Shown piece after piece: positions 1-55,700 of a DNA stretch of 64,000 nucleotides. The notes under the pieces were generated by a model. It saw only the letters and a list, made by a program, of their open reading frames with translations. It was not told the origin of the DNA and ran no database searches. The DNA comes from Dipteris shenzhenensis. Its lineage: Eukaryota. A program made the position numbers and the translations under genes. How positions within the stretch are numbered: the stretch's first letter is position 1; each line of letters begins with the position of its first letter. Where the stretch lies: NCBI GenBank assembly GCA_047967505.1, contig CM106538.1; one strand, 5' to 3'.

Positions 1-388
1 TAGCTGCACAAGTTTCTTATATGAAACAAGATGAAAATATCAAATTAAATAATGTAGACTAATGCATTAATGCAAACTACAATGGTCTCTTTATGTAATT
101 GAGCATTCTACATTCTTATTTTCTTTGTACAATCTTGATGTGGAGATGGATACATTAAGTACTAGTATGATATTAGAGGTTGGTCAATCCCCAGAAAGAA
201 CCAAGATACAAAAAAGTTATTAAAAATACATTTAAAAGTCCCCTCTTTACTCTATTTTAAGCATCTTTCTTTAAAGTTGCGTTTTAAAAAATCCCCTTTG
301 CTAAATGAACGTACTATATTTATGGATTATTTTTAATGGATCCCATTTTTACTACACCTTTGGAGGAAGCTTTCCTCCTAGACATCTT

Positions 389-1722
389 GATGAGGGGATG
401 CATATCACAATGGAAGAATGGGATTATGCTAGAGGATGCATTCAAAAGGTCGGTCTATAGAATGTTATGCATAAGTTAGGAGCTTTCAACAATTTAAATT
501 GCTTATTCAATTGATTTTGTCTTGGTGTAGTGTACTATGTTCAATGCTATATGGTGTGAGGGCAAGCATTTTCAAACACAACGGATTGATGATAAGAGAA
601 ACACACAAGATTATGGCATCATTGCTAGCTTTGAGGGAGCCAATGGAACCATGGATGATTATTGTGGCATAATCCGAGATATTACTAAGCTTGACTTTTA
701 GTGCTTCTTTGTGTATGTTTTGGAAGTCAAGTGGTTTAAGGACATGGTGGAAAGAGGCTCTAATGCAACAATCAAATGCCATGCAAGTGGCTTTGTAACT
801 ATTGACTCCACAAAGTTTTGGCAAAGCAAGAAGGACACACTAGTACCACCGCAACAATGTGAACATGTACTGTACATATATATAAAAATACTCACTTTTT
901 TATATTTGATACTTTCGATGCAAGGAAAATAACATGTTTGTATTTGTGTTTGAACTAGGTTGTCTATCAACCAATGGTGGATAATAATAGGTGGTGGCAT
1001 GTCATACCTATTTCACCACGTTCCAAAGTGATGTATAGTACATTTACTAATATGGAGCGGAGGATGATCATTGCCATGGAGGTGATGATGATCGTTATAG
1101 GAGAGAGGAGGATGATCATGAGATAGAAGATACAGATATTCAGGCCATTACCCATGAGATGAGCACAGTAGCACAAGTAGGAGTCGGCTGAATGTATTCA
1201 TAGATCTCCACATTTGTTTGGATATTGATGTAGATAGTTTGGCAAGGGTTAATCTCATTGAGGATGAGATCGAATTGTAGCCCATCATTTTCATCCAAAT
1301 TTCTTATGTATTAGCAAAACTATTTTATATATTGTCTCATTCTCCTCATCTCACTTAATTTTTATATATGTGTGTTTGGCAAAAAGCATATTATCGAGTG
1401 TGACACGTGCATAGCATTGATATTTTTTAAAAATTATGTGCTTTGGTAATCATGGGCAATGCTTGGAAAGCAGTGATGCACATTTATCAGCTTTTGCTGC
1501 AAAATTTCAAACTTTGCTGTGCGTTTATAAACGCGTCTAAATATGCATCTAATATACAATGTAGATGCACTATGAGATGCATTAATAACCACACTAATAG
1601 ATGCGTTAATAACTGTGCTAATAGACATGCCCATATTTTCATTAGTTCTATCTGTGCCTATAGACACGTCTGCTATTTTGCATATCTATCACGTGCATCT
1701 ATAGCTGCTTTGTCTTGCTGTG
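389..1722 (+). mobile_element. 3'-terminal remnant of the same CACTA-superfamily family as 34406-42409 (DUF4216-type exons, subterminal repeats, right TIR)
   Basis: Colinear with 40604-42409 (e.g. VLEVKWFKDMVERGSNATIKCHASGFVTIDSTKFWQ). Ends in TGTCTTGCTGTG at 1722 (reverse complement CACAGCAAGACAAAGC). Lacks the 41194-41618 insertion and has many CG>TG/CA changes. Confidence 0.9.
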
Positions 1723-4469: not shown

Positions 4470-5682
4470 TTTATGAACTTGATTTAGTATTTTGATTCTC
4501 AATGTCAAATGGTTTAGAACTATCTACAATGGTCCCAATGTTATAGTTAGGAGAGACAGCATTGGTTTCTTTGTCATTGACTCCACTAGACCCTGGACCG
4601 AGGAACGTGATACGTTTGTTCTTCCAAAGCATTGTGAATAGGTGCATACTAATGAATTAATTAAAAGATAATATCTTCGTTTTCAAACAAATATTGATAG
4701 ATGTTCATGTATAAATATTTATATTCTTAAGCATAAATTAATATAATTAATAGCATATAATTTGTATCTTCAACATAGGTGGTCTTTCATCTGGATCATT
4801 TGGATCCAAGATGGTGGTACATGGTCCAAGTTTCTCCTCAAAGCAAATATAGTATTGAAGATAGAAATGTGGATATGGAGATGCCAGTAGAAGATCCAAA
4901 TAATGATGCGAAAGGATGTAGAGAAGAGGATGAAGATGACAATATGGGCCAAGAAGAAGGTGACAATAATGACACTATAATGGAGCAAGGTGGAGATCAC
5001 GACTTTGGGGAAGAAGAGGGAGAACTAGAGGATGAACTAGAGGATCAAGTCTTAGGTAGACATATAATAGGGGATGATGATATAGGTGATCAATTGTATG
5101 TAAGCCTTGAGATAGAGTTATTTCACGCATAAGACTTGGCTCAAGATGAAGCCGTCAATGTAAATGCTACTAATTGATTGTTTTGACATCGATGAGACTT
5201 CCTATGTTTGGCCCTCTCAGTTTTATAGCACTTGACATTTTGTACATTTGTATGTTAAGTTCACCATCAATATATGAGCGTTTTGATCTCAATTTTGGTG
5301 TACATACTCATATTTTTTATCTTCAAATGCCCAAACTTGTGGTCAAATTTTATTTTAGGTCCCTTGGAACTGATGAGTGTTTTGATCTCAAATTTGGTGT
5401 ACATACTCATATTTTTTATCTTTCAAATGCCCAAACTTATGGTCAAAAATTATTTTGGGTCCCTTGGAACTGACGTTCTGTAAAAACGTCGATATGGAAA
5501 ATTTAACCCAGAGTCGTTGGAATCGTCAGTAGAAGCATTGTCAATCATTGATATGTACGTCAGTATACACCAACTAGCATCAACACCTTCCCTGCCCGCT
5601 AATCATACCGATGATTTTTGTGCCCGTGCCTGCAAAGCATCAATAGATAGCATCTAATTTAAGAGACCCGTGTCTTGTAGTG
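4470..5682 (+). mobile_element. 3' remnant of a canonical CACTA element (DUF4216-type exon, acidic last exon, right TIR)
   Basis: VFHLDHLDPRWWYMVQVSP...DDDIGDQLYVSLEIELF matches the minus-strand copy at 31023-31450. Ends TGTCTTGTAGTG at 5682 (= CACTACAAGACA). Contains an internal ~105-bp tandem duplication at about 5275-5475. Confidence 0.85.
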
Positions 5683-23820: not shown

Positions 23821-24056
23821 GGTATGAAGCCATCACATCATTCTGGTTGGTCGAGGATGTGGCAGATGTCAACAAATCAAAAGGGAAGCTACAGAGCTTT
23901 CATATCTCTATGAAAGATATTCTAGAGGTGCGAGGCCTCAGTAAATGTTGTCTCTGTGCCAACATGGACTTAGGTAGAACAAAATGTGTGCGTAGAGTAG
24001 CAACAAAGCTCCGCTTGTACTTGCATAAAGGCTAGAAATAATCCCTCTTAGAAATC

Positions 24057-24593
24057 CAACATGCAAGTTCTACATGCGAGTTTTACATGCAACTCCTACA
24101 TGCGAGTTCTACATGCGATTTCTACATGCAACTCTTATATGCAAGTCCTACATGCGAGTCCTACATGTGAGTTCTACATGCCACTCCTACATGCGAGTCC
24201 TACATGCGAGTTCTACATGCAACTCCTACATGCGAGTCCTACATGCGAGTTCTACATGCAAATCCTACATGCGAGTCCTACATGCGAGTTCTATAGGCAA
24301 CTCCTACATGCAAGTCCTACATGCGAGTTCTCTATGCAACTCCTACATGTGAGTCCTACATGCGAGTTCTACATGCAACTCGTACATGCGAGTCCTACAT
24401 GCGAGTTCTACATGCAACTCCTACACGTGAGTCCTACATGTGAGTTCTACATGCAACTCCTACATGCGAGTTCTACATGCAACTCCTACATGCGAGTTCT
24501 ACATGCGACTCCTACATGCAACTCCTACATGCGAGTTCTACATGCAACTCCTACATGCAACTTCTACATGCCTTTCCTACATGCAACTCCTAC
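24057..24593. repeat. 13-bp minisatellite, about 40 copies, CTACATGC(GAGTT/GAGTC/AACTC)
   Basis: Direct reading of the tandem units; it explains the repetitive ORFs 24061-24786, 24074-24352 and 24440-24682. Confidence 0.95.
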
Positions 24594-24599
24594 ACCTTC

Positions 24600-24880
24600 T
24601 GACTGCTTCAAGTTGCCACCTGCAGGTACACATTCTCCGGCTCCTCTTCTTTGCCGAAATACTCAATCATTGCTGCTATTAACCTTGGCCAGCTTTAGCG
24701 AACGTCTTCAGCCTGCTTCTCATACCACACTTGAGCCAAACCCTCTAGAAATGTGGGAAGAACCAACAGCCATCTATCTTCAGTAAGAAAGTTGAGAGAA
24801 ACACAGCGGTGCTTGAAGGCCACAAGATACTCATTTGGATTTTCTTCAACCCATCCACAAAACATGGGAATGTCAGCCAT
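24600..24880 (-). pseudogene. Ty3/gypsy gag N-terminal (capsid) fragment, truncated at the minisatellite
   Basis: MADIPMFCGWVEENPNEYLVAFKHRC...LPTFLEGLAQVWYE...W..L...F matches the retrotransposon gag pattern F-x-G...P..(Y/F)L..F...L.G.A..W(Y/F). Confidence 0.8.
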
Positions 24881-30523: not shown

Positions 30524-31022
30524 TAATCTATGAACATTCATAATTTTGTATATAGAGAGAAAATTCAATGCAATACCTATAAAATAATCCATTGTAATTT
30601 AATTGTAGTTTAATGAAATTAAAACTATTGGCAACGATGAAGGATTTGTAGCTAATTTTTCCATAGATTATTAGAAATACACTACTACACACAGATCCTA
30701 TTGCGACGTTTACATACCGACGTTTAGCGTGCACGGGGTGCTAATCGTTGGTATGAAAAGTGCATCTCGTAAAGCGTCGCTATATAGCAACATTAGATAA
30801 ACGTCGCTATATAGCGACTATTACAAAAGTCGCTATATAGCAACACTGAGATACTATTTTATAGCGACGTTTTCCAGAGAGGTTTTTTACTCATATAGGC
30901 CTTATGACAAATTTTTTTTAATTTTCATACATGTTTGATCTCATAGAGAATAAAAATATGAGAGCATGTACATCAAGCCTTTGAAGCTCATATATTCATG
31001 TCCAAGTTTGAGATGAAAAAAA

Positions 31023-33280
31023 TCAATTAAGAGCATTTACATCAATTGTTTCATCTTGAGCCAAGTCTAAGGTGCCAAACAAGTCTATCTCCAACTCTAT
31101 ACTGAGTTGATCTCCTATATCATCATCGTACTCAAGCATCATACGTTCACCTAAAAGTACTTGATCATCTTCTTCAATAAAGTGTGGCAATTCTTGATGA
31201 TCGTTGTCTTCTTTCTCAATATCATGATCTCCATCTTCCTCCCGTGCGATGTCATTATGCGCATCTTCCTCTTGGCTCATATTGTGATCTCCATCTTCTT
31301 CGCTAGATTCATCAGGACAATTGGATCCGGCATTGGTAGTGGCATCTCCATATCCACATCTCTATCTTTAAAAATTTGCTTACTTCATGGTGCAACTTGG
31401 ATCATGTACCACCATCTTGGATCAGAACGATCCGGATGAAAAACCACCTATATTGAAGATGGGTGCCAAATGTCGTCAAATATATATATGAAATTATGCT
31501 CAAGTACATGTATCAATGGATCTTTAAAAACAAAAGCTTTGATTAATTAAATCATTAGTATGCACCTGCTCACAGTGCTCGGGAAGAACAAAAGTATCAC
31601 TTTCATGGGTCCAATGTTTGGTGGAGTCTGTTGCAAAGAAACCGCTACTATCTTTTCTCACTATCGCATGGGGACCGTTGTAAATAGTTCTACCATTTTA
31701 CATCAAGAATGAAAATACTAAATCATCTGAAATCAACTTCATAGATATCGCATATGGTTCCACAATAATCCAACTGTGAGGGCCGGAGAGAAGATTGGTA
31801 TCTGAAGCACTTGCTCGGCTATCTTGTGTGAAGTTAGCCATGACTCCACAATCATATGTGACTCTCTTTGAATCGATGCGTTCCATGCGAAAATGTCGTC
31901 CATATGACCATAATGCACTGTACTTTTTGTACTGTAAAAGAGCATCATTAAAACAATGAAGATGCATCTATTTTATAGCGTATATTGCCACAAATAATTA
32001 CTTAATTACATCAAGAGGTAAGAAACTTACATGCACCATACATCCAGTTGATAACTCTGTCTTGCGCCCGTTTATTGTCTCTCCATCGCGTTCGGCTTTA
32101 CGTAGAGCCAGTTGTAGCCAATCAAGTGACATGTGAGTGGGGAGAAGAGCTTGATCCCGTGGATATGGTTGCGATCACCTGTACATTACTCTGAATCTCG
32201 TCCTTGCATTTATTCTTTCTGCTTTGGCCACTTCATATCTCTCAATCCACTTCTGCATCTCAGGGCTATTGAGGATACAAAACTTATTGAATTTCTCCAT
32301 TTGCTCTTCGCTCATCTTTCTTTCAATCCCTTTTCCTTGAGGAACCTCACCAACGATGCGATCATCATCCTTGTTATGCTAAGCTTGTGGCATATCGGAT
32401 CCATGGATGCAAGAAACTCTGTGATATATACTAATGACTCTTGCACAAGCCATCCCTCTACCATGCTTGCTTCTGGTCTTGCTCTTTGTCTTACAAATCC
32501 CTTTAAAGTTTTCATAAACCGCTCGAGAAAAAACATCCATCAACTATGAATGGTACCTGCAATAGCCACCTCATCAACTGTGCACAAGCAAGTGGACTTG
32601 AGTTGTCATAATGCTCGAGGGAAAGTACTTCTCAAGCAAGCCTACGGCTTCGATGGATTCCACCCTAGCCTTCTCGATGCTCGATATGGAGATCTCTTTT
32701 TGAGATATCCACCTATTTCACATGTCCATGTAAGATATTTTCATAATCAGTCTATAGATTAATAAGCTTAAATTGAAGAAAATGCAATCAATGCGATTTG
32801 ATAGTAAGCATACCTCACAATACCACAGATCTTGAATATAGCATTTCTAACATCTTCTTGTAAGCACCCTTTTATTGTAATTGGGAGGATGAACTATCAA
32901 AGCAACAAAGAAGTCATGTCAACAATATAACATAATCGTAATTACGCTAATGCATCACGATTATCGTTACACTAATTCTACTTAGAATACCTGTAAGACC
33001 TTGTGCCAATCATGGGACTTGAGCCCACTAAGCTTATTGTCCTTTGAAAATGCTCCTTTCAAGCAACGCATGTACCCTATCAGTGTTTGAAAAGAGGCAA
33101 TGTCTGCCTTGATTGCTGCCTCCTCCCTCGTAGAGAGGATCCACGTTGCTTTCAGGAGGACAACTTTTCCCGAAGCAGGCTACTATTTGGGCACACTTGG
33201 TTGGTTCCAAAGACTCGAGAGGAGTGCGAGAAGACTTGCGTGCTATGAATAGGATGTCTCGTTTGTGGCCCCAAGTGCAT
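31023..33280 (-). pseudogene. CACTA transposase 3' half (DUF4218/DUF4216-type exons), decayed
   Basis: GLKSHDWHKVLQ (~33000), MFFLERFMKTLKGFVRQRARPEASMVEGWLVQESLVY, WSYGRHFRMERID and an acidic final exon, all homologous to 39399-41954. Confidence 0.9.
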
Positions 33281-33649
33281 GGTATTTGGTGCAGGCAACA
33301 TCTTCTGGAGCAACCTATGACAATTCAAACATACATAGGCTTCGAACAATAATGATTCGGTATACACTATCCAAATGATGTTTCTTAAAACAAACATGAT
33401 GATTCTCAAAACAAACAATATCCAAATAATGAGTCAAATTAATGCAAGAGCTAACCTCATTAAGGCTGAGAATATCCACAAGTTCAAGAAATGTTTGCAA
33501 GATTTTTATTATTTCAAAATGCAACGACATTTTTCTTTTTTAAGGAAATTCCAGATTCCCAACAATCTTATCAACCTCTCTATAGCAAGCATCTCCTAGC
33601 TCTTGAGGCCAGTCTGCTGCACAATGGTAGACCTCTTCACACACTCGAC

Positions 33650-34405
33650 ATGGGATCACGTCGCACATCTGACGAGTACGGACAGCCTCGTAGGAGGAGA
33701 GCTCACGATCTATATGCTCCAGAGGACTTTGATTCCTCTCCTTGAGGACTACCCCTAGCCGACTCCTCTCGGACCTAGCACTGCGACTACCCTTGGTCCG
33801 ACTCCTCTCGGATGTAGCACTGTGACTACCCCTCAGGGAACTCCTTTGCTAGCCGTGCATGGCTTTGTCGGGAGTCCCGACGAGTTTGTAGCACAGATGA
33901 GTGATGAGGAGGCAGCGAGATTCTTCTCTCTGCTATCTCAGAGGACCTCAGCAATTCCCTCCCCTACATCGATTGTTGGATGTACTGCCCAACCGTCCCC
34001 TCGTGCCCCTTCGACTGAGGGTAATCACCTACATGTGCCTCTCATAAGGGAAGGAAGAGCAGGAAGGGCAGCTTATGTTGTGCTGACTCGGGAGATGTAG
34101 ACGAGTCAGCACACTCACATTCCTATAAGTTTCCACTTGGTCCGGAGACACAGTATCAGTCAGGTCCCTTGCCCTCTCCTACTCCCACTGCTACTCCTCG
34201 CTCCGGAAGCGCTCGCACAGCTTCCACTCCTTCTGACTCTGCTACCATCAGTCCTCCTTACTCATCAAGGGATCTCTCCTATCAAATCACGGCTGTCGGA
34301 GAGATAATAGAAGATAGAAAGGGCAAAGCAGTGATGGCCACCATGAGGTGGTTGATGAGCCATCACTTCAAGAGCGGCATTGCTACCGATTGGCGGTATC
34401 AAGAT
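33650..34405 (+). pseudogene. Accessory (TnpA-position) gene of the outer CACTA element, split by the nested element; resumes at 42410-42516
   Basis: Joining across the GAT duplication gives YQITAVGEIIEDRKGKAVMATMRWLMSHHFKSGIATDWRYQDDQKKQAVINELKQKYPDPPNWEF, which aligns with YDITQTGGILMDARGKDVMAFM...VRSRYPNPPNRQF of the 35026-36500 gene. Confidence 0.8.
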
Positions 34406-35025
34406 CACAACAAGACAAAGCACCCATAGACGCGCGCACAGACGCATTTCATGAACTAAATAAAAAACTTACGGGCGCGTCTATTTGCGCGTCAGGAGAC
34501 CCGCGTCTATTAGCGCGTCTATATATCAAACTTACGCACGTATAGACGCGCTCATACACGCGTAAATAGACGCGCAAATAAACGATTTGATAGACGCACG
34601 TATAGACGCATATCGAATAGACAGACGCGAATATAAACGCGTTTGTAAATGCGCTGATAGACGCGCCTTTTTTTTTTTAAAATTTTACAGAATACTGTGT
34701 ATGTTGTGTATGCTATATAGTTACAACAATCCCATATCCACATTCTCTGTAATTCAATTCTTACAGCCAACCTCATTTTAATTACAATTCCAAATAAAAT
34801 ATTACAACTCCAAAACGCAATAAAATTGAAAGCTCAAAAAGTGCTTGTATATACATATAGCACGAAGCTAAGCCACGTCATGTGGCTCCAAGTACAAAAA
34901 ATAAGGAAGCTAAGCCATGTCATGTGGCTTCAAGTACAAAAAATAAGAGGAGTCTATATACAAGAGGCACGAAGCCAAGCCAATGGCTTTAAGTACAAAA
35001 AAGAATAGTAGCACTACTTCTACGA

Positions 35026-36500
35026 CTAATCCTCGCTGCCTTCCACGCTCCCTGATGCGCTGCCTTCCGCGCTCCCTTCTGCACCTCCTTCCTCGTCTTC
35101 CTCGTCGTCTTGTGCAGGGGCGCCCTGTAAACAAGGGACAACATATATCAATGTATGAAAAATCAAATCTTTACTTATAATTTTGGCATTATTTAATTAC
35201 TTTCAAATACCTGGGGGGCATGTCCAGTCGCTCGGGTATACTGCTCCTCAGTAATCAACCCGTCATCATAGAAGTGCCTCCATGTATCTCCTCTGCGATG
35301 GTGGCGGTGGTAGGCTGTCTCCACTGGAGTAGGGTATCTGCCCACGATCTCAAGTTGCATGACCGCGATACACTTTGTGGAGGGATTAGTACAAAGAAAC
35401 AACCAACCTCCTAATAAACTACATAAGCAATATAATTTGAGATCAATACTTACAAATTGGGCCTCCCATGATTCAACACCCCCTGCTCCAAAATGCGCAC
35501 TCCCATACTCCTCCATCTGGATCCTCCGTGCCTCCACGTGCTGCAGACTGGGCTCCTCCCTCGCTGACTTCATTGCCTTCTTCCACTCACGCTTCTGAGC
35601 GGTGTGGGGCGGGCCCCTTGGAGGTTGACCTGCCTCAAGTCTGGCAAGCTCGGCTAGTGCCTGCCTCTTAAGGGAAGATCTTTTATTGCTAAGTATCGTA
35701 ACAATCTTTGACTTGGCCCATTTATCTGTGAACTGGCGATTGGGGGGGTTAGGATACCTAGAGCGAACAGTAGCGAGGGTCTCATCAGCCAACCTCTTTG
35801 GGTGGTCTTTATAGTGGATAAAGCAATCTCTGTAATTGTTAGCAATTACAGAGCACATGAAGGCCATTACATCCTTCCCCCGCGCATCCATCAAGATGCC
35901 TCCTGTCTGGGTGATGTCATAATAAATCGTACCATCACCCAGAGGCACGTCTAAATCATCGGAATCATCATCCTCGGCCTCACCGCCACATGGCCCAAAG
36001 CACTGTGCCATGCATCCGCCACCGCTCTCCCTGCTACTACGCCTGCCACCCTGTCGTGTCGAGCTCATACGATGGCCACTCGTAGCTGGGGACTGCGCGG
36101 GACTACGCTAACCACTCGTAGCTGGAGAACCGAGTCTCGATGGCTGGGGAGTACGTCGACGGCTCGCTGAGGCAGAAGGACCTCCTGAAGGCATGGGGGA
36201 AGGGGCATAAGACGGGATGGCAGAAGGGACATAAGACGGCATGGGGGAAGGGGCATAAGACGGTACGGGGGAAGGGGCATAAGACGGGGCATAAGACGGC
36301 TGTGCGGACTCCGCTGGGGTGATCTCAGGCAATGTGGGGTGGCTCGGAGTCTGTACTGCCGACTCCTGGGGAGTGTTAAGGGTACCCGTCATGTACCCGT
36401 ATAACTCCGCAGGACTAGGAGGGTGCCCTAAAATATTATATAAATCCTTCCATATCGATTCACGCGGATCAGGTGAGCTAGAAGCACTTCCTCCCCACAT
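35026..36500 (-). pseudogene. Accessory gene of the CACAA element (Pro/Ser-rich SYAPSP repeats, helical domain, acidic tail); one premature stop
   Basis: ORFs 36108-36524 and 35193-36068 are in the same frame, separated by one TAG (36108-36110). ATG at 36500; GT donors at 35453 and 35210; AG acceptor at 35126-35125; last exon GAPAQDDEEDEEGG..SED* ends at 35026. The middle acceptor looks mutated (CAA). Confidence 0.75.
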
Positions 36501-36579
36501 GTTAAACTGGAAAAAAATAAACAAATCTATTACTTTGGGAGCTGAGAAGAAAGGGGGGACAAAAAAAAAGAGGCTCTGT

Positions 36580-37475
36580 CAGTTCGCGTCTATAGACCCG
36601 TCTAATCTGCGCGTCTATAAACGCATCTAACAGAGCATTTAATAGTTCAAGTAAAAGCGCGTTTATCACCGCGTCTAACAAACCGTCAAAACATCCGTCT
36701 AACAGTGCGTTAAAAAGCGCGTTTAACAGCCCGTCCAAACATCCGTCTAACATCGCGTCTAAAAGCGCGTCTAACAATTCGTTTAAACTTCCGTTTAATA
36801 GATCGTCTGTTTAGGCGTCTATATCCGCATCTGTGCATGTCTGTAGCAAGCCAGACGCACAAATAGACGCGCCTGTAGATGCGCGTTTAGACGCGCCCTT
36901 AGACGCCTGTATACACGCGCTCCGACAGTCGAGAATACTCAAAAGTGGAAAAGGACGTTTCGCCCGACAAAAGAACGTGTCGCTCATACCTAGATGCTAT
37001 GTTTCGTGGATGCAAAAAAGTACAAAACTGGAAAGAGCAAGCAAGAACAACTTCAAAAGGACTTACTTGGAAAAAGGTATGGAAAGATCTTTCTTTTCCA
37101 AACTTGTTTCTTCTCCTCCTCTTCTCCTTGTTTGTACTCCTCCTCTTCTTTAGGCTTGGAAGCAAGCTGTGTAGGTACGGTCCCTTTGTCTTGAGTGAAA
37201 GCTTGGAACTGTGTGTGTATGGGAGGCTCTCTCTTAAGCTTCGAATCTATAGAACTGCTAATAATGAAGGAAAAAAGCCGCTCGCGAAGTTTAAGTTGTT
37301 AAAAGAAAAGCAAAGCGAGCGGCGCGCCGAAAAGCAGGTTTAAAAGTCGCGGGTATAGTCGCGTCTATTAGCGCGTCTACAAGCGCGTTTAAATACACAG
37401 AGTAGACGGGCATTTAGACGCGCAGGTAGACGCGACAGTAGACGCGACGATAGCGGGCATTTAGACGCGACACAG
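36580..37475. promoter_or_regulatory. Putative bidirectional promoter region with clusters of AGACGCG/CGCGTCT motifs
   Basis: Lies between divergent ATGs (36500 on -, 37533 on +). The motif is clustered at 36580-36920 and 37350-37475, and in both subterminal arms (34425-34670, 42130-42390). Confidence 0.55.
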
Positions 37476-37532
37476 AGTTTTTAAGTTAAGCATTTGAAGA
37501 AGAGCAAATTTGGTGGGTTGTTTGTTTGTAGG

Positions 37533-40500
37533 ATGTCTCCATCTTCAACAAGCAGCTCCAGTGAGGATGAATCCCTCCGTATCCACCATCGCGAAATGTG
37601 GTTGGAGCAAAAAATCAAATGTCTGTGTGATCGATGTCGAGGAAACATGTATCATGCACACAGGATTACGCTCAATCATATCTCAAAGTATGGAAAATGG
37701 GATGTGACCGTAAACAGGGTAAGGATTTGTAAGTTAAGGTTGATTGAGATACCTATGGGTGTTCATATGTTTGAGTTATAATGATCCCGTTTTAATTTGA
37801 TACAGGATGCAGTGCCACACCCGCACATGTTACCCTATGCCCGTCGTGAGGAGGCGAAGCGTCGGCGATATGAGGTGGGATCTTCTGGAGGGACTGTTAC
37901 AGATGCATGGAGTGATGGTGATAGTAGCCCTCCACCATTACCTCATGAAGCCATGGAGGAGGAGGTGTTTGATGATATGGTGCGGGATTTATATGTCCAT
38001 CAAGGGAGGGATAATAGCATGGAGCAGGATGATCTTTTTACTGCAGCATCGACTCCATTGTTTGAGGGGTGCACATTCTCTGTTCTACGTGCCTCCCTTG
38101 AGTTACTAAACTTGCAAACCATCTATGGATGGAGCAATGCAAGTTTGAATGCATTACTCAAGTAAGCTTTAATTTAAAGTCGATTTTGCAAACATGATGA
38201 ATTATGCGCGTGGGTCAATTACTCGAATGCTTTTCCTCATTTATGGTCTTCACGTGCAGGCTATTGTGTAAAATGCTTCCAAAGGAGAATAAATTACCGA
38301 CCTCAAGAGATATGGCAAGGCAACATGTGACCTCTCTTGGAGGATTAGATTACAAGCGCATCCATGCATGTGTCAACGATTGCGTTTTGTTTCGTGGACT
38401 ACATAAGGATGCAAGAGAGTGTCCTACTTGTGGAGAGGCAAGATATAGAGCAGATCTCAAAACCTTGGACGTGCCTCGTAAGGTATTGCGACATTTTCCC
38501 ATAATCCCTCGCATCCAACATATGTTCAAGTGCAAATCTATTGCAGAGCTCATGTCATGGCATTCCTCCCATCGATCAACCGATGGCAAGTGGAGAACTC
38601 CCGCGGACTCTCCTGCGTGGAAGCATATTGAAGACACATGGCCAAGCTTCAAGGAAGAACCTAGGAGCTTGAGACTTGGATTGGGTATGGATGGTGTGAA
38701 CCCATTTGGTCTCAAAAGCACGTCTTACAGTGTATGGCCAGTGGTATTGGTGAATTACAATCTTCCACCCTCTATGGCTATTAAGAAAGGACATGTCATG
38801 CTGTCCCTTCTAATTCCAGGGAAACATAAAGTCAAAAACCCTGATGTTTATTTGGAGCCTTTGATTGATGAGCTAGAGATACTTTGGAGAGGTATCGAGG
38901 TGCATGATGTGAGCAGGCCTCCCTCGTCACGAGACTTCAACTGCAACGCAGTCTTGATGTGGACGATGCATGACTTCCCAGGCTATGGCAAGTGTTCAGG
39001 TAAGAATTGCATTTTTTAATTATGAATAGGCAAGGACGTGGCACCCTAAACCCACCTTCCACTCTTAATTGCATCTATTGTTTCAGGTCTCACTACATCG
39101 GGTTACCATGCATGTCCTGTTTGTGGTCCTTCACTAGTTGCCTCACGGGCAGACGCATTGAATAAGGTCATCTATGAGAATCACCATCGATTTCTCCCAC
39201 CTGATCATCCTAGATATGTTGCCCCTTGGAATGAAGTCCTCCCACAATCACTCACCGCGGGAGATTGGATGAGAATTTGGGATGGTTCCACGACTCCTCC
39301 ACCACTTGGCATGAGCCGGTAAGGATTTGTAACTATTGGCTGGAAGTAAAGATTGGCTATATTGGTTGAAAGTGAAGATTGCACGCTAACACTTTATTTT
39401 GTTTAGATACTCCATCTTTTATCGTTTACCATATTGGTCCCACCTCAAGATCAATCACCTGCTCGATCCCATGCATATCTTCAAGAATGTGGCATCTACC
39501 ATTTGGGAGCATTTGAATGGGACACGAGATTCGGCAGGCATAAGGGAGGATCTACGTACCACAGGGAGGATGCGTGAAGCTTGGCCTCAAGAGAGACCAA
39601 ATGGGCGTGTTTTTTTACCTTGTGCACCGTGGATGTTATCAAAGCTAGAGATGGCGACGGTGAAGCGTGCTATTACTACAATTCATACTCCCACTGGATG
39701 CATGAGGTGTTTGAAGGGAGCCTTTACAAAGAGCAAGAAAAGAGGTGTAGAGCAATTATATGGCTTGAAATCTCATGATTGGCACAAGATGCTCCAAGTA
39801 AGTATTTTATATGCATAATATCTTTTTCCTTTCAAATTTGTGAGTGAATAGCTATAAGCAACTAATCAACCACCTCCTCGCGGGTTCAGTTCATACTACC
39901 TACTAGCATTTCACGTAGTGCATCAAAGGACGTGAAAGATTGTATTTACAAGATGGGCGAGCTTGTGAGGTATGTGAGCTCAAAGGAAATAGATCCCACC
40001 ACGCTTGAGAATGCTCGAGTTATGTCAGTGGAGGCGGTTTGTTTAGTGGAGGAGACATTTCCACGTTCTATTCTCACAAGCCAACTACATCTCATAGTGC
40101 ATTTGCAGGTGGATGAGATTGCTATATGCGGTACTATACATGCATGATGGTTGTTCTTCCTCGAGCGCTTCATGAAGACCTTGAAGGGCTTCGTGAGACA
40201 AAATGCAAGACCCGAAGGTAGCATGGCCGAGGGTTGGTTGGTACAAGAGTCACTTGTATATATTTCTGAGTTTCTTGTTGATGTGGATAGCTCTCTCCCA
40301 CGACTATGGAGAGATGATGAAGACCTAAGGATGACCTCTATTGTGCCTCAAGGAAGAGGACGCAACAAAGTAATAGACACGGAGTTGCGTAATAGTATCA
40401 ACCTCTTTTGTGTGCTTAATAGTGATGTGATGAAAAGATGGGTGACAAGATACGAGGGTGCAAAGGCAAGAGGACAAGAAGAAAGGGCCCTCTTTCGTAC

Positions 40501-41954
40501 ACACCACCACGGATCTCGTGTGCCATACCCTCAGCGTCTAAGAGCACTTCCAAAGGATATTTATGTGGATTGGCTACTTGATGAAATGAAGAAAGCAGAG
40601 AAAGACGAGGGGATGCATATCACAATGGAAGAATGGGAGTATGCTAGGGGATGCATGAGCAAGGTCGGTATATAGAATGTTATGCATAAGTTAGGAGGTT
40701 TTTATAATTTAGATTGCTTATTTAATTGATTTTTTCTTGGTGTAGTGCACTATGTTCAATGCTATATGGTGTGAGGGCAAGCATTTTCGAACACAACGGA
40801 TTGATGATAAGAGAAACACACAAGATTGCGGCGTCATTGCTAGCTTTGAGGGAGCCAATGGAGTCATGGATGATTATTGTGGCATAATCCAAGATATCAT
40901 TATGCTTGACTTTCGACGCTTCTTTGTGTATGTTTTGGATGTAAAGTGGTTTAAGGACGTGGTGGAAAGAGGCCCTAATGCAACAATCAAACGCCATGCA
41001 AGTGGCTTTGTAACTATTGACTCCACAAAGTTTTGGCAAAGTAGGAAGGACACACTAATACTACCGCAACAATGTGAACAGGTACTGTGCACACACATAA
41101 AAATACTCGCTTTTAAATATTTGATGCAAGAAAAGTAACATGATTGTATTTGTGTTTGAATTAGGTTGTCTATCAACCAATGGTGGATAATAACTTCTTA
41201 TCCATTTGGTGGTCCAATCTGTTATCAAAGCATAGCACAACATCCCCCTCAGCAAAGTGTCTTTCCCATCCCTTGCGTATCTTAGCATCCAATCGGGCCT
41301 TTTGTCGATTCTTTTGGATCTCTGTTTGGTGTAGTGCAAGGTGTTGGATCTCATCTAACTTCTCAAGTTGTACCAATCTGGCCTCTACATGTTCATCTTC
41401 TGTCATCCTCTGTTCTTGTGCCAATCTCAAGGCCGGAATCTCTATCTCTAGTGGTAAAACTGCCTCAGTACCATACACCAACTCAAAAGGGGTGTGACCT
41501 GTAGATGTTTTATGAGTGATGTTGTAAGCCCACACGGCTTCAGTGACCTTCTGATCCCATTGGCTCTTGTTCCCTGCGGCCATTTTTCCTATGGTTTTAC
41601 AAAGGAGGCCATTGGTCCAATAGGTGGTGGCATGTCATACCTATTATGCCACGTTCCAAAGTGATGTATAGTACATTTACTAATATGGAGCATATGGAGG
41701 ATGATCATGCCCATGGACGTGATGATGATCGTGATACAAGAGAGGAGGATGATCATGAGATAGGAGATATAGATATTGAGGCCGGCATTACCCGTGAGAA
41801 CGAGCCTACCATTGGAGATCTTGATTTCGATGAGCACATGAGTGGCACAAGTAGTAGTGGGTTGAATGTATTTGTAGATCTAAACACTTGTTTGGATTTT
41901 GAAGTAGATAGTTTGGCAAGGGTTGATCTCATTGAGGATGAGATTGAACCGTAG
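37533..41954 (+). pseudogene. TnpD-type CACTA transposase (Transposase_21, DUF4218, DUF4216-like), multi-exon, nearly intact
   Basis: IHACVNDCVLF, CPTCGEARY, LGLGMDGVNPF, YNLPP, YLEPLIDEL, MHDFPGYG, LDPMHIFKNV, GLKSHDWH, FFLERFMKTLK. GT-AG introns between the ORF blocks. Lesions: TGA at 40145-40147 and the insertion at 41194-41618. Confidence 0.93.
41194..41618 (-). mobile_element. Isolated gypsy (Tat/Athila-like) integrase C-terminal fragment inserted in the transposase last exon
   Basis: WDQKVTEAVWAYNITHKTSTGHTPFELVYGTEAVLPLEIE...FAEGDVVL. The empty site GGATAATAATAGGTGG is visible in the paralogous copy at ~979-994. No LTRs. Confidence 0.9.
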
Positions 41955-43263
41955 CCCCACAATTGATATTGGCAAAACTATTTTACATATTGTCTCATTC
42001 TCCTCATTTCCCTTAATTCTTGTATATGTGGGCTTGCAAAAAATTATGTGCTTTGGTAATCATGGGCAATGTTTGGAAAGCAATGATGTACACCAAAATC
42101 TCACTTTCTGTATTCTCTGGATCGAATCTAACTCCGCGTCTAAATGCGCGTCTAAGTCTCAGTGTAAACGCGCAAATAAACGCGCAAATACACGCGCAAA
42201 TAGACGCGCTAATAGACGGGATGTTAGACAGGCCCGTATTTTCTCAGGTCTAACGCGCAAATAAACGCCGTTATTGACGCGGAAATAGACGAGCATTTAG
42301 CCGCGCTAATAGACGTGCCCGTAATTTCTCTACTAGAGCAACGCCTATAGACACGCTCGCTATTTTGCGCATCTACCAAGCGCGTCTATAGTTGCTTTGT
42401 GTTGTTGTGGATGACCAAAAGAAGCAGGCGGTCATCAATGAATTAAAACAAAAATATCCTGACCCGCCAAATTGGGAGTTTAATGAGGATTATATGCGAG
42501 AGCGCTTGCTGAAATGATTCTTTAACAAACTTTTGTCAGTCTTAGATGTTTGATATACTTATTCAAACACTTAGCATAAAATGTGACTTACAATGCAACC
42601 CATTAGGCTAACCACTCAAGTATGAATTCCTAAATCAATCTTGCTGAAATGATTCTTTAACAAACTTTTGTCAGTCTTAGTTGTTTGATATACTTTTTAT
42701 ACTCATTGAAATCGGTTTTATTTTCAGATATACTAGAGAAAGTGTCAAATTTGAGACTGCTTGGGTGAAAAATTGTATTATCATACATTTGTGAGCATTT
42801 TGTAATTACGTGTAATGGGTTTTTGTACTCCTTTTATTTTTATAAAATAGTCTTATGACTCTACCTTAAGCTCAAGATAGGGAATTGTCAAAGACACATT
42901 TACACCAAGTTGTTTTTTTTGCCAAAATATTAAAAGGACACTTTTATGTCCTGTTATGCTACCAAACTAGTGATAAAGTCCCTTTATTAGGTTGTTCTTA
43001 GAAAGCTTGATGTCGATGCAAATGAAGAGAGCATTATAAGGAGGTTAACCAAGCACAAGAGGTATTTGGAAACTCAAGTCAAACCCATAGAGTAATAAGC
43101 AATACCTCAATATGGGGAAGAGGGAGTACAAATAAGCACCCCTCCACCCCCCTCTTCCCCTTGCCCCGCCGCCCCCGGCGCTGGCTTTGTCAAATCCTAA
43201 CAACAATTGAAAGGAAAACATGAGTACACGACCCTAAAGCCTCTTGTCGTTGAACGGAGAAAA

Positions 43264-43341: not shown

Positions 43342-43669
43342 CTGGCGGGGGTGCTACGCCAGGCTTTTTCGGTCGCATCACGGTTGGCTGATACGCTACG
43401 ATTGCAATGAGTCAACAAAAGCAAAAGATCGTCGTCCAACATCCGCCAGCACAGGACGCCAAGATCGGCAACGACGGAGCTATCGAGGCAACAAGTCGTA
43501 AAAGATCGGCTTAGATGCTTGCTGTTGATCATCTTATCCTTATTCCTAATTATCTAACTTATCTGCTTCTTATATCTTCTTTTTAACCATTTCAATTCGT
43601 CGTCTTCTTCTTCGTGTAAGCTCTCTCTCGGCCTCCTCATCCGCTTCCCACCAGCTTGTCAATCCAGCT

Positions 43670-46600
43670 ATGGCGCCTCCTCCTCCTTTCTACTACCTCC
43701 TCCTCCTCTCCTTCTTCCTTTCCTTTGCTTCCTCCTCCCTCTCCTCTCCTTCATCCTCCCTCCCTCGCCGCCAAATGCTCTCCAATGGCTTGGGCCTCAC
43801 TCCTCAAATGGGGTATTTCTCCTCCCTTCCCATCTCCGTCCTGCTTTTTCCTGTCTTCTATTCCGTTGAGCGTCCATTACAACATGTGCCCGTCCCTTGG
43901 CATGCCTTTATAATCGATTTTGAGAACCAAACGCCTTTGCCTCTCCTCACATTTTTATTGCACCTGCAGATGGAATAGTTGGAACCACTTCGGTTGCCAA
44001 ATCGATGAGCAAATCATCCGCAATACTGGTACGTTTGCCTCCCTTCAGGACGTAAACGCAATTCTGGACGTTAAATAGAAGCTTTGTACATGGAAGTATA
44101 ATGAAATGACTCCGCGCCGTCGGAAAATATATCTTTTTGCTTGTTCACATTGCACCAAACTTATGTTGCGGCAGAAACCAAGTCCAGAATCGATTTACAA
44201 CTTCATCTTCGTCCCTGCATTCATTCGAATTGATGAATTCAATCTTTAGTTATGTTGAGACTCTGTATCTTACTAGATGGTCGATTACAAGCGCATCCTT
44301 TTACGTGTTATGCTTGCAGCCGACGCGATGGTTTCAACAGGGCTGGCTGCACTAGGGTACAAGTACGTGAACATAGGTAAGCTGCTTGACTGCGATTCTA
44401 CACTGTCGATTGTGTCGAAATGTTTTAGTATATCCAGAATGCACGGAATCACAAAATACATTTCTGCATTTCGGGTCACCGGTGCACGTTACGGATGCAT
44501 TTCATAATCTCTCAGCGTTCGACAGTTGTATAGAATTTATGGAGCATTGAGTTGTTATTGATCCTTTAACATTGAACAGATGATTGCTGGGCGGAACTGA
44601 GCCGTGACAGCCAGGTGAGTAACTCAATATTGCAGGTACGCGAGAAACTCAACCGAAAGTCTCGCCATAATTCTTCTCAAAACTTATTGCGAAACTTAAC
44701 GAATGGTCGCACAGGGTAATCTGCAAGCAAGACGTTCCACGTTCCCGTCTGGCATCAGCGCTCTTGCGGATTACGTGCACGCGAAAGGCTTAAAGCTAGG
44801 GATTTACTCGGACGCAGGGTCAGTTGCTAACTTTTTCCAAGTTTGTACTGTATCCATCTCCCCTATTCGCATTACGTGGAGTTCGGTGCATCACAGATTC
44901 ATGAAATCCGATTACGCATTGGTACAATGTGACTGAAGTCTGAACGAGATCGTTGTCTCTCAGATAATTTATCGATTTGATCTCGCGAGACTGATATTGC
45001 GTTAATTCCGCAGCTACAAAACTTGTCAAGGCCAACCTGCTTCGCTTGGGCATGAACAACAGGACGCCGCAACGTTTGCTTCTTGGGTACGTCGGTCCTG
45101 CTGTGCTGAGATTCTTAAATCTAACCTGCATTGCAATTTTAGACTATCGAGCTGAGCAAATGTTCCAAATTCGAATGTATGGTTTTTCGTTGCTTGTCTC
45201 ACGCGCGAAATGCGCAGGGAATCGACTATTTGAAGTACGATAATTGCAACAACGATGGATCATCGCCCGAAACGAGGTTGGCAGTCCCTGTCTTACGACA
45301 TTCTATTTTCCGGGGGGCGATGCCGATTACATGGCAAAGTCTTTGCTGTTACTTTTCTCATTCTGCTCCTTGCAGGTACCCGGTAATGCGAGATGCCCTG
45401 TTGAGCACCCAGCGTCCCATCTTTTTCTCCCTCTGCGAGTGGTGAGCACTGAGTCTGAAACGTCCCGCCCCGCTTATATTTTTTAATCAGACGAGCCGTG
45501 CACGCGGAGTTTTGACAATGTATCCGTGGATTTTACCCCTGTCCCCTTTTGTTGATACCAGGGGACAAGACAATCCAGCCACCTGGGCTCCCAAAGTCGG
45601 AAACAGCTGGAGAACCACTGGCGATATCAGCGACAATTGGGCAAGGTGAACGGAATCCATGGTTAAAAATTGTCACCGGTCCGTTAGCCCAAACTTATAC
45701 CATGGTTGTGTGGATATGGCAGTATGACATCCCGAGCCGATTTCAACAATGTCTGGGCTTCGTATGCCGGGCCTGGCGGATGGAACGGTGATGTCCGGAC
45801 TCCGAACACTTTCTTGCCGAAGCATCAGCTTTTTCTTTCGCGTCGGCAAGAGAAATATTTTTCATCATGTCCAGCTAACAATCAATCCGGCTTCTGCAGA
45901 CCCGGACATGCTAGAGGTGGGAAACGGAGGCATGACGACGGAAGAATACCGGTCGCACTTCAGCATATGGGCAATAATGAAGGTTTCCAGACTACTCTCA
46001 GCTCGTTTTCGCTTTCGATTGATCGCATTTGTGCTAGCTAGATGCTCTCATGGGGCAATCAAATATGTATGCCAATGCTTCTAACACGTAGTCGCTTGGT
46101 TGTGTGTCTCATTCAGGCTCCGCTTCTCATCGGTTGTGATGTTACAAACATCGGAAGCGACAATCTCGCGATATTAAGCAATCCCGAGGTTATTTCTGTG
46201 AACCAAGGTCAGTAGTTATATTAGGCAAATCTCGACGTCTTTGAGGGATAGTTTGCAGATGATCTAGGAGGTTTGCTGATCAAATGCTTGGGTTCCTCAA
46301 TGTGTTAAAAACACAGATTCACTAGGAGTGCAGGGAAAGAAGGTAAATCAGAACGGAAATCTGGAGGTAAGCCGTAACCGATACTATGTGCCTAGAATAT
46401 GTCGTTTCAAATAATTCTCATTTGCCGGAAGCTGGCTACCACAAATAATGCGAGAGGACGTGAATTGTGGCAAATTTACAGGTATGGTCTGCGCCATTAT
46501 CAGGGAACAGGGTAGTGGCAGTATTGTGGAATCGTGGAGATTCACCGTCTGTGATCACGGTCCAGTGGTCGGACATGGGTCTAGCGTCCTCGGCAGTGGT

Positions 46601-52620: not shown

Positions 52621-52727
52621 CTTCTCCCACCAATAAATTAAGTACTAATTAAAATTATGATAAATGAGTAGATTATTAAAAAGAGACTAATTAATATTTA
52701 TGTAATTGTTGCTACTGCAGAGCCTGC

Positions 52728-55700
52728 TTGCAAAGGACTCTCACAAAGGAGATGGCTATAGATTTTATTCCAGGGATGGATGTGATTTTATGTAGCAAAA
52801 GAGAAGTAGTTGCATTTGCTACAATCCATGATAGTGATCCCAATTCAGTTTGCCAATTTCGAAGACTTGGCAAAGATAAGGTGGCAGTTACTATATCAAA
52901 GATTCTTAGTGCACATGTTGAGCTAAAGTATAAATATGGAGATATGGAAACACTTGGAGATGTTATGCCCTACAATACATCCAACAAATCATTTATAGCA
53001 TGGGACAGAGACGAGACTTATGCAATAGACATTATCAAGAATACAAAGTGCACCACCTTGGATTTTACTATAGGGGACTTTTTACAAATGAGATCATTTG
53101 CAAATAAGAATGTAGCAGAAGGTGAAGTATTGGGATTTGAACAAGTGGAGGAATGGTCATTTGCACAGATGGGGATTCTAAAAGTCACTGATGATGGTAT
53201 GGTTGATAACATAACATCCTTATGTGATCCCTACTAGGAGGTAGGCAAGAATATGAGATGGAGCATGCAATTTTTAAACATGAGAAAGAGGCACATGGTT
53301 TCAATGATAAAGACAAGGTATACTACAATATCAAAGGACCTAAAAAGCATGCCCATGTGCCAAGCTCTATCACTTCAAACGTGGATGATTTCAATGTACT
53401 CAATTATAGAAGTGACATCTTATCTGGAGTGGATGAGTTCATCGGTTCTGAGAAACAAAAAGATTTTAGAAGTGAAGCCTTATCTGGGGTGGATGAATTC
53501 TTGCACAATGAGAAGGGCAAAGGTTTTAATAGCGATGTCTTGTCAAGTGTGGATGAGTTCATGCATATTAACAAACCCGGTTTCAATCAAGCTTGTGGAT
53601 TTGTGAAAGCCATGCAAGTTGTCCCAATGAGCGATGTTCTCTCAAGAGTGGAAGAGTTTCAAGGTTCTCAATACTCTTGTAGAATATTGAATTCATTGAA
53701 TGGTCCTAAGAGTATGTTAAAAACGAGGATGAGATTAATAGAGGATTATTTAGTATTTAACTTGATTGTGATATGGCCAAGGATGCAACAACCAATCATG
53801 GATGCTTGGTTACAAACAAATGTGAGGAGAAGAAGTGCATAAATACAAATAACAATGTGCACGAGGAATGAGAAGAGAAAGCAAATCCAGACAGATCCAC
53901 AAAAGCAACCAAAGACGAAGAGAGTAATGAAGGAGGAGAAAATGTTAAATGCATTGGGATATCTATGTTGCAAGCAAAGATGTATGCACTTTATTGATCT
54001 TGCAGACATCAAGGAATGTAGAGGACACGTGTGGCAAAGAAGAGGAAGCGAAAGAAATCAATACCTTCTCACAGGTCTCTCTTGCTTTCTTCAGAATGGC
54101 AATAAAAGGCTAAGTTCAAGACAAAAGGAAAAACCTCTCGTAAATGGAAAAAGATTTGCAATAAGGCATATCGCAATATTACTGGATTATCCCATGGTAC
54201 ATATTGGGATTTAGTCACCAAGGCAAAGGGCGGTAAAAAATTTAGCATTCATGGTAATAGAGGAAGGTCCAAATCAAGAATCTCAACTATTAGGGAAGTA
54301 GCAATTTTGCAAGACTTCATACATGAAAATGCTTTACCTCAACCCCATATATCTACCAAAATCCCTAACAGTGATGCGATCACTGAAATGCACCTTCCAA
54401 TGGGCTTGACAAAGCTCAAAGTATTTGACTCTATTGCAAAAAAGCAAAGGCAAAGAGGGGGCGCCGTGGCTTCTTCTCATACTTTGTATACTCTTTGGAA
54501 GAAAAACTTTGGATATGTTAAAATCCCAAAGAGGCAAAAAATGTCAAAGTGCAATGTCTGTGATGATTTAAAGTGAGCGATTGAGAGTGCAAGATATCCA
54601 AATCAAAGGGAATTATACAAAAAAAACTAAAAATCTCATCATGACCTTATTTGACATTCCAGACAAAAATATGCATTTTGGAAGGAGCAAGCTATTTCGG
54701 ATAACGATGACTACATGTGCCTTATTGTAGATGGCATGGATCAGAATACAACATTGCCTTGTTTCGTTGCCACTCCACCTAAATTATAAGGAAAGCACTT
54801 TCTAAAGACACATTTATGTGGAGTGTTAGTGCATGGAATTAAGTTTTTTGTAGATATATGGATTGATTCCTTACATCTACATTTGAGCAATCACGTTGTA
54901 ACATCTATTATGAAGGCAATTCGCAATGTACATGCAAAAAAAGGTTGCCTACCACCGACTTTGAGAATACAAGCTGAAAATTGTTGGCAAGAAAATAAGA
55001 ATGTACTCATGTTTGCATTCTGCTCAATGCTAGTTGCTCATCGAATCTTCAATGAGGTTGAATGTGGATTTTTGTATGTTGGGCATACACATGAGGATAT
55101 CAATCACGTCTTTAGCACAGTCTCAAGAGAGCTTAAATGCAAGGATGTGGAGACAATAGATGACTTGGTAAGAAGATGTGGGAGGCAAGTTGGAGGTCAT
55201 AAGGAAAGTACGGTATGTGAGAGGCTCAAAAGAATGTATGATTGGAAGAGCTTCATTCTACCTTTCATACAAACAGGTGGTGATGCATTGACAGGTCATA
55301 CCAATCCACACTACTTTCATTTTTTTTAAAAAGATGAAAGACTCGTAATGCAATGGAAATAGTATTCTCATGATACAAAATGGGAACTAAAGAACCTTAC
55401 AATCTCTTAACTTCAATTCCCAACAAGGAAAGGTATCCAACATGGGCTCCTATAAAAGAATTCAATGAGAGGTCTAATTGTGAAATAGAAGGACTAAAAG
55501 CATTTATTACATACAAAGAGGAAATGCTCCAGAGATATCCTGATTCGAAGCCTACTTGGAGAGAACACACTACCACTGTAATTAACAAGACACGAAAATT
55601 AATAAAGGACCTTGAGAGAATGTGAGGCTCAAAGGATGTCAAGGAAGAATGCAATATATTTTGGCCAAATGTTCATAACGATTTGCGCCCAGCTCTAATT

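Follow-up and report, generated by a model that had tools for sequence, protein, structure and literature searches.

The window analysed here is a stretch of 64,000 nucleotides from the genome of Dipteris shenzhenensis (contig CM106538.1 of assembly GCA_047967505.1). Positions 34406-42409 of this window are occupied by an 8-kb CACTA-like DNA transposon, called the inner element below, which is inserted into a homologous accessory gene of an older, degenerate CACTA element, the outer element. Besides a TnpD-type transposase gene, the inner element carries a second gene, termed the accessory gene. In an original prediction, made from the sequence alone, the product of this gene was presented as an unrecognised protein family, paired with family-specific arrays of CG-containing motifs and possibly comparable to TnpA. 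Features of the inner element, together with a sister copy of the same family, are as follows.

1..1722, plus strand: third inner-family copy (the sister copy), of which a 3' portion of TnpD remains along with the right arm and an inverted repeat at 1706-1722 (1 mismatch)
34403-34405 and 42410-42412: GAT target-site duplication, 3 bp, perfect, read from the sequence
34406..34435, plus strand: left terminal inverted repeat, 30 nt, 90% complementary to 42380-42409; starts CACAACAAG, not CACTA
34427..34666: left subterminal array of TAGACGCGC, 8 sites with <=1 mismatch, in both orientations and partly in 12-bp phase
35026..36500, minus strand: accessory gene (ORF2, read as the TnpA equivalent), with ATG at 36500 and stop codon at 35026-35028
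35457..35945, minus strand: conserved protein core, 163 residues, with a hairpin (YYDIT..GGILMD), three helices, two more helices and an H(F/Y)GSGG motif
36108-36110, minus strand: in-frame premature TAG in exon 1 of the accessory gene, within a short SPATSG duplication
36584..36920: internal array A of TAGACGCGC, just upstream of the accessory-gene ATG, 12 sites with <=1 mismatch
37359..37470: internal array B of TAGACGCGC, just upstream of the TnpD ATG, 8 sites with <=1 mismatch, four of which are spaced 12 bp apart
37534..41954, plus strand: multi-exon TnpD-type transposase gene, Transposase_21 (PF02992) E 1e-48, DUF4218 (PF13960) E 4.3e-10
41194..41621: insertion of about 428 bp breaking a TnpD exon; in the alignment it is missing from the sister copy at window positions 880-1080
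42134..42388: right subterminal array of TAGACGCGC, 12 sites with <=1 mismatch, six of which follow one another at 12-bp spacing (42165-42225)
42380..42409, minus strand: right terminal inverted repeat, pairing with 34406..34435

The 3-bp duplication, the transposase with its Transposase_21 and DUF4218 domains, and the subterminal repeats of 10-20 bp in both orientations are traits of CACTA (En/Spm) elements. The terminal inverted repeats lack the CACTA start and begin with CACAACAA (ends of CACAACAAGACAAAG type). We nevertheless assign the element to the CACTA type on account of transposase, duplication and layout. At its N-terminus, TnpD contains a Cys-rich region and a weak match to Transpos_assoc (E 0.0036). 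The insertion in the TnpD exon is accompanied by an open reading frame (ORF) of 153 amino acids on the minus strand (41176-41634) without a Pfam match, which looks like the integrase C-terminus of Ty3-type retrotransposons.

The accessory gene and TnpD are arranged head-to-head, and 1033 bp separate their start codons. Three exons of the accessory gene are predicted (36500-35454; 35372 or 35348 to 35211; 35124-35026, including the stop codon), with splice sites predicted by reading of the sequence (GTAAGT and GTATTT donors, AG acceptors). The position of intron 1 is the same as in the spliced relatives P0005, P0020 and P0036. Most database entries of relatives read through this intron and end with '...FVS' followed by junk residues.

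The encoded protein begins with a disordered, Pro/Ser-rich N-terminus, followed by a Cys-Phe-Gly patch, an acidic stretch, a hairpin with a three-helix domain resembling helix-turn-helix (HTH) domains, two further helices with the GSGG motif, and an acidic C-terminal tail. Common to the whole family are a disordered N-terminus rich in Pro, Ser and Gln, the Cys-Phe-Gly patch (CxxCFG or CCFGGGG), the acidic stretch and a core of the pattern YY.I...G.I.D.RGK.V...(helix)...YPNP...F..W...(helix with NKRS)...REW...H(F/Y)GSGG. The third helix of the core is long and basic and bears the residues ILSNKRS. The patch reads CMAQCFGPCGG in the window copy (35980-36030, minus strand), behind the disordered N-terminus and ahead of the acidic stretch, and occurs in relatives, including those from fern, as CCFGGGG, GCFSCFG or GCFGDCFG; metal binding and lipidation are guesses at its role.

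Relatives of this protein are few. The first database search returned 2 matches among 545 candidates, 28 relatives at E<=0.001 were found among 1.84 billion representatives, and a profile search, scored among the 7999 candidates sharing most words, recovered 33. The profile reaches proteins of the fern Adiantum nelumboides (E ~1e-39), which are the only named relatives and are all entered as 'hypothetical protein'. These fern proteins possess an additional N-terminal domain, recorded as PF26133; a search with this domain yielded 11 proteins, all from fern, and no mention of PF26133 or DUF8039 was found in the literature searched. Three fern gene models (P0059, P0061 and P0062) join parts of TnpD (DUF4218) to the accessory protein. 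As these models run TnpD into the accessory protein, both genes lie on the same strand in the fern.

The fold of the core was modelled with AlphaFold2 from a 37-row alignment (mean pLDDT 88.0, pTM 0.75). The model consists of a short hairpin and helices at residues 21-37, 50-63 and 74-104, followed by two more at 118-130 and 134-147; residues 21-104 form a three-helix bundle of high confidence. In a second model, built with the intron read through (pLDDT 80.0), the core is retained and exon 2 contributes two short helices of fair confidence; a helix predicted over the intron-encoded residues was dismissed as a read-through artefact. The structural matches of the core are weak, and the commonest type among them comprises Myb/SANT, MADF-Zeste and transposase N-terminal HTH domains, which have in common with it a three-helix bundle with basic third helix. 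A Foldseek comparison of the core with PDB gave nothing at E<=0.001. A profile search against PDB sequences gave nothing below E 0.17, and in the protein atlas the core scored at most 0.84 and the fern N-terminus 0.78, which are leads only. When the 37 family members were scanned singly against Pfam at E<=10, the only recurring hints were HTH models below threshold, namely HTH_70 in 3/37 members (best E 9.7e-4), with HTH_37, HTH_32 and DUF4817 once each.

The second component of the system is the motif. The heptamer AGACGCG, said in the original prediction to occupy both arms and the promoter of the inner element, has 27 matches in the window where 0.85 are expected, a count reached in 0/100 shuffles. 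All but two of these (25/27) lie in the inner element; one is in the arm of the sister copy and one is unrelated. The 25 form four clusters (34428-34665, 36585-36895, 37360-37469 and 42135-42387), in the arms and the intergenic region. The longer motif TAGACGCGC is followed by three variable bases, which results in a period of 12 bp. With <=2 mismatches it matches 137 times (52 expected; as many in 0/100 shuffles), and 40 of the 45 matches with <=1 mismatch, by our own count from the match table, fall into the four clusters. Exact 12-bp runs of 4-6 units are frequent, for example at 42165-42225 and 37403-37439. The repeat unit of En/Spm is also 12 bp long.

Within the start-to-start interval, about 440 bp of spacer separate the internal arrays A and B, and 20 of the 40 sites lie between the two start codons. 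Since both arrays are situated in this intergenic 1 kb, the presumed bidirectional promoter, rather than the ends of the element, holds half of the good sites. These arrays are the most informative feature of the locus: they are poorly explained by recognition of the ends alone and fit a regulator of transcription.

The same combination of genes recurs in the outer element, whose remains are listed below.

30680..30868, plus strand: outer CACTA end CACTACTACACACAG with a short array of palindromic GTCGCTATATAGC
31023..33400, minus strand: outer TnpD remnant, C-terminal part only, DUF4218 E 1.8e-09, 77% to the inner TnpD
33650..34405, plus strand: 5' part of the outer accessory gene, in three frames (frameshifts or introns), with the YQITAVGEIIEDRKGKAVMATM block, cut by the inner element
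42410..42516, plus strand: continuation of the outer accessory gene, ..KQKYPDPPNWEF.., with an early stop

The outer element opens with a canonical CACTACTAC end at 30680, and its TnpD remnant, which lacks the N-terminal two thirds, again stands head-to-head with an accessory gene. That the window holds two divergent homologs, the outer one split by the insertion, had been read correctly from the sequence: the coordinates of the inner gene are exact, the common pattern and the Pro/Ser-rich N-termini agree with the description, and the outer frame runs across the insertion, resuming behind the GAT duplication (from ...DWRYQD to DQKKQAV...). In a BLASTP comparison the inner and outer proteins match with E 2e-07 and 19/60 identical residues (32%), and the piece around YP(N/D)PPN with E 1e-05. 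By tblastn, the outer copy is nearer to the fern-like subfamily, with an identity of 46% to P0022 and of 41% to each of P0029 and P0032. As the two proteins are distant and the outer one is nearer to that subfamily, two old lineages of the family coexist in this genome.

The motif GTCGCTATATAG of the outer element is confined to one short cluster (30776-30868) adjoining the CACTA end. The original prediction had given AGCGACG as a form of this motif; the cluster stands, slight as it is, but AGCGACG alone, with 3 matches in the window, is within chance (8/100 shuffles reach 3). No second copy of the outer inverted repeat was found within 3 mismatches. A candidate right end, CTAGTG followed by ATA at ~42973, would supply a matching ATA duplication, but the two ends are alike no further than CACTA. 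The outer accessory ORF closes with a segment of ~55 bp (…ctgaaatgattctttaacaaac…) that recurs ~135 bp downstream (42505-42700), which suggests a rearrangement that truncated the gene.

A third pairing of protein and array was encountered outside the window. A search of metagenome-collection contigs with the fern-like subfamily gave two short loci, L001 and L002, and an alignment search with close relatives gave no locus there. L002 encodes a multi-exon fern-type relative with 69% identity to P0032. About 200 bp past its stop codon, at least 12 palindromic CGCTGGAAWTWCCAGCG units form an array of 470 bp, followed by a CACTA-type element end, which on the other strand has the sequence CACTAGAACC.... 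At L001, no array was found within its 2.4 kb. Fern-type relatives open with a small beta-rich domain, the one recorded as PF26133, on its own exon (L002 1-245; L001 432-700). Three elements with three diverged proteins thus have three unrelated CG arrays, TAGACGCGC in the inner element, GTCGCTATATAG in the outer one and CGCTGGAAWTWCCAGCG at L002, a pattern consistent with co-diversification of protein and motif, as judged from these three cases only.

The sister copy at the beginning of the window gives a view of what becomes of the motif with age. There, the TAGACGCG units are found in the decayed forms TAGATGCA, TAGACATG and TAGACACG. Of the 32 CpGs in the right arm of the inner element, 21 have an aligned position in the sister copy; 4 of these are kept, 9 have become TG and 8 CA. 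Such loss in an old copy is the decay that would be expected if the CpGs of the motif were methylated in the germ line.

Known CACTA elements offer a framework for these observations. A full-length element consists of a transposase gene and ORF2, whose function is unknown or poorly conserved (PMC4158355, PMC8195511). Transposition depends on TnpD and on TnpA, and it is TnpA that binds the subterminal repeats (PMC8195511). In Arabidopsis, Spm TnpA binds clustered, family-specific CG motifs at the termini and brings about ROS1-dependent CG hypomethylation and activation; its DNA-binding domain is built of two tandem tri-helical HTH motifs ~45 residues apart (10.64898/2026.08.24.746577, a preprint of 2026). 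The Arabidopsis tnpA and tnpD are described either as a single, alternatively spliced gene or as two head-to-tail genes, and TnpA is reported to end in three small beta-barrels (10.1101/2024.04.02.587720).

Because of its position, its layout and the type of its fold, we regard it as fairly probable that the accessory gene is ORF2 of an autonomous-type CACTA/En-Spm element and that its product, a functional counterpart of TnpA, binds the arrays. Like TnpA of maize En/Spm and Arabidopsis Spm, it is the second gene beside TnpD in a CACTA element, and its product combines a disordered N-terminus with a helical, putatively DNA-binding region of HTH type. The element likewise has a clustered, short, element-specific subterminal motif containing CG, comparable to CCVTCGCAAA in Arabidopsis (10.64898/2026.08.24.746577). 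The definition of ORF2 in CACTA elements of Triticeae and grasses also fits the accessory gene, a likeness by description only (PMC4158355). Contrary to TnpA, the accessory protein has no detectable sequence similarity to PF03004 in Pfam, the family is present in fern, and a tandem second HTH is not evident. The accessory gene points away from TnpD, unlike tnpA of Arabidopsis, which is described as a splice form or as lying head-to-tail (10.1101/2024.04.02.587720), and half of the inner motif sites are internal and intergenic, in contrast to elements with terminal sites only.

We propose the following scheme. The accessory protein would bind the 12-bp-phased TAGACGCGC units in both arms and thereby help TnpD to recognise and pair the ends of the element. 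It would bind also the arrays flanking the internal spacer, regulating transcription of its own gene and of TnpD, perhaps through an effect against CG methylation like that of TnpA.

The original prediction had also drawn a parallel with VANC of the VANDAL elements. Both cases share the concept of a DNA-transposon accessory protein acting on clustered cognate motifs (10.64898/2026.08.24.746577). VANC, however, belongs to the Mutator-like superfamily and has another fold, as its largest domain resembles MAIN (10.1101/2024.04.02.587720); no sequence similarity between it and the accessory family was seen in the Pfam scans. With a Transposase_21 transposase (E 1e-48) and a 3-bp duplication, the inner element is of CACTA type, and a VANDAL link is not borne out.

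Several observations weigh against the TnpA-like role of the accessory protein. The Pfam scan of the window protein at E<=0.1 matched no family, including Transposase_24 (PF03004), and when the 37 family members were scanned singly, 0/37 matched Transposase_24 or Transposase_23 at E<=10. The absence of any recognised domain, which had been predicted, is thereby confirmed, with the reservation that HMMER filters discard most matches above E ~0.1, so that a very faint similarity to Transposase_24 could escape. The second tri-helical HTH motif of TnpA has no evident equivalent: behind the bundle there are only two helices in exon 1 and two short ones from exon 2. The link between protein and motif is a co-occurrence in three elements only, and no array of the outer motif was found in the other arm of the outer element. 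Finally, the premature stop codon makes the window copy of the accessory gene probably non-functional; as TnpD is interrupted as well, the inner locus as a whole is probably inert.

Part of this evidence bears on a closely related explanation, that the accessory protein is a true, very divergent homologue of TnpA (Transposase_24) and works as TnpA does. We rate this as a serious possibility, if short of an even chance. Its position and the transposon superfamily are the same, and TnpA is reported to diverge strongly between species (PMC8195511). Its layout resembles that of Arabidopsis TnpA, with a disordered N-terminus, a helical DNA-binding region and small beta-barrels (10.1101/2024.04.02.587720), and the PF26133 domain of the fern proteins reads like a small beta-barrel, for which the SH3-like leads from the atlas are weak (<0.8). 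The occurrence of small beta-rich domains in both, at the start of the fern-type relatives and at the end of Arabidopsis TnpA, may hint at common ancestry. Homology is opposed by the failure of PF03004 to match either the window protein or the 37 members even at E<=10, and by the distribution of TnpA-like proteins, which are stated to appear limited to flowering plants (10.64898/2026.08.24.746577), whereas the accessory family is present in fern.

A bolder version of the opposite view is that we are dealing with an ancient accessory family of fern and seed-plant CACTA elements, non-homologous to TnpA and Transposase_24, which converged on binding of phased CG repeats. In this lineage the gene would have turned head-to-head with TnpD, with arrays on both sides of the shared internal promoter, and one protein would control both the ends of the element and a bidirectional, methylation-sensitive switch. 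We hold this to be unlikely as a whole.

The gene could also have another role, for example as an inhibitor of transposition, a chaperone of TnpD or a chromatin adaptor, and the arrays could be bound by the N-terminus of TnpD or by a host protein. Binding by the accessory protein is itself a prediction from sequence, it has been argued that a transposase can itself bind DNA and regulate (10.64898/2026.08.24.746577), and the inner TnpD does have a Cys-rich, Transpos_assoc-like region at its N-terminus. Yet one helix of the three-helix bundle in the confident core is long and basic, the subterminal repeats of CACTA elements are the established target of TnpA while TnpD acts at the ends (PMC8195511), and the motif differs among three elements whose accessory proteins differ. 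Such a division of labour therefore seems doubtful to us. Least convincing of all, and in our opinion very improbable, is that the gene is a captured fragment of a host gene (a transduplicate of Pack-CACTA style) without function for the element: CACTA elements often capture host fragments (PMC8195511) and the inner element holds a foreign insert of 428 bp elsewhere, but the gene is shared by two elements with proteins only ~32% identical, it accompanies TnpD in the fern models and a CACTA end at L002, its exon structure is conserved, and none of the three database searches gave a named host-gene relative.

With the accessory protein taken as a counterpart of TnpA, the proposed co-evolving pair of protein and motif finds its place as ORF2 of a CACTA element with arrays that differ between elements. 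To call the system unrecognised overstates its novelty, as the concept of an accessory protein acting on family-specific CG arrays is already known and was demonstrated for Spm TnpA (10.64898/2026.08.24.746577). New here are the unannotated family, the head-to-head layout in two diverged elements and the internal arrays. No description of a head-to-head arrangement of tnpA and tnpD was found in the literature searched, which lay outside Repbase, TREP and Wicker et al. 2003, and no priority is claimed. Because the family is missed by screens for TnpA based on Pfam, such as that in lettuce (PMC8195511), autonomous CACTA elements of this kind would be scored as lacking tnpA.

Should the protein bind the arrays, it would provide a second example of the TnpA principle, unrelated in sequence or very distant, and extend this principle to ferns. 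The head-to-head layout separates 'promoter' sites from 'end' sites, so that the regulatory role and the role in transposition can be tested separately. In En/Spm, 'promoter' and 'end' sites overlap.

Several other features were observed in the window. Another CACTA remnant contains a C-terminal fragment of TnpD at 4779-4967 (tblastn to the fern models P0059 and P0061, E ~5e-06) and a CACTACAAGACACGG-like end at 5668-5682. A satellite-like tandem array at 24029-24786 encodes '...HAS(P/S)TCEFYMQ(L/V)L...' over and over in a single frame, once every ~14-15 codons; its Pfam matches are spurious and due to low complexity only. The window is plant-like DNA, and ORFs resembling LRR, RVT_2, DUF7869 and alpha-galactosidase proteins are present as well; among the 47 of 56 window ORFs of >=110 amino acids that were scanned, none is a Transposase_24 ORF. 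In the regions 43550-46100 and 52695-55326, a host-like gene with a signal-peptide-like start and a fragment of an alpha-galactosidase (Melibiase_2) directly follows the nested transposons. Further on is the DUF7869 ORF (E 1.2e-46), typical of a protein of another DNA transposon.

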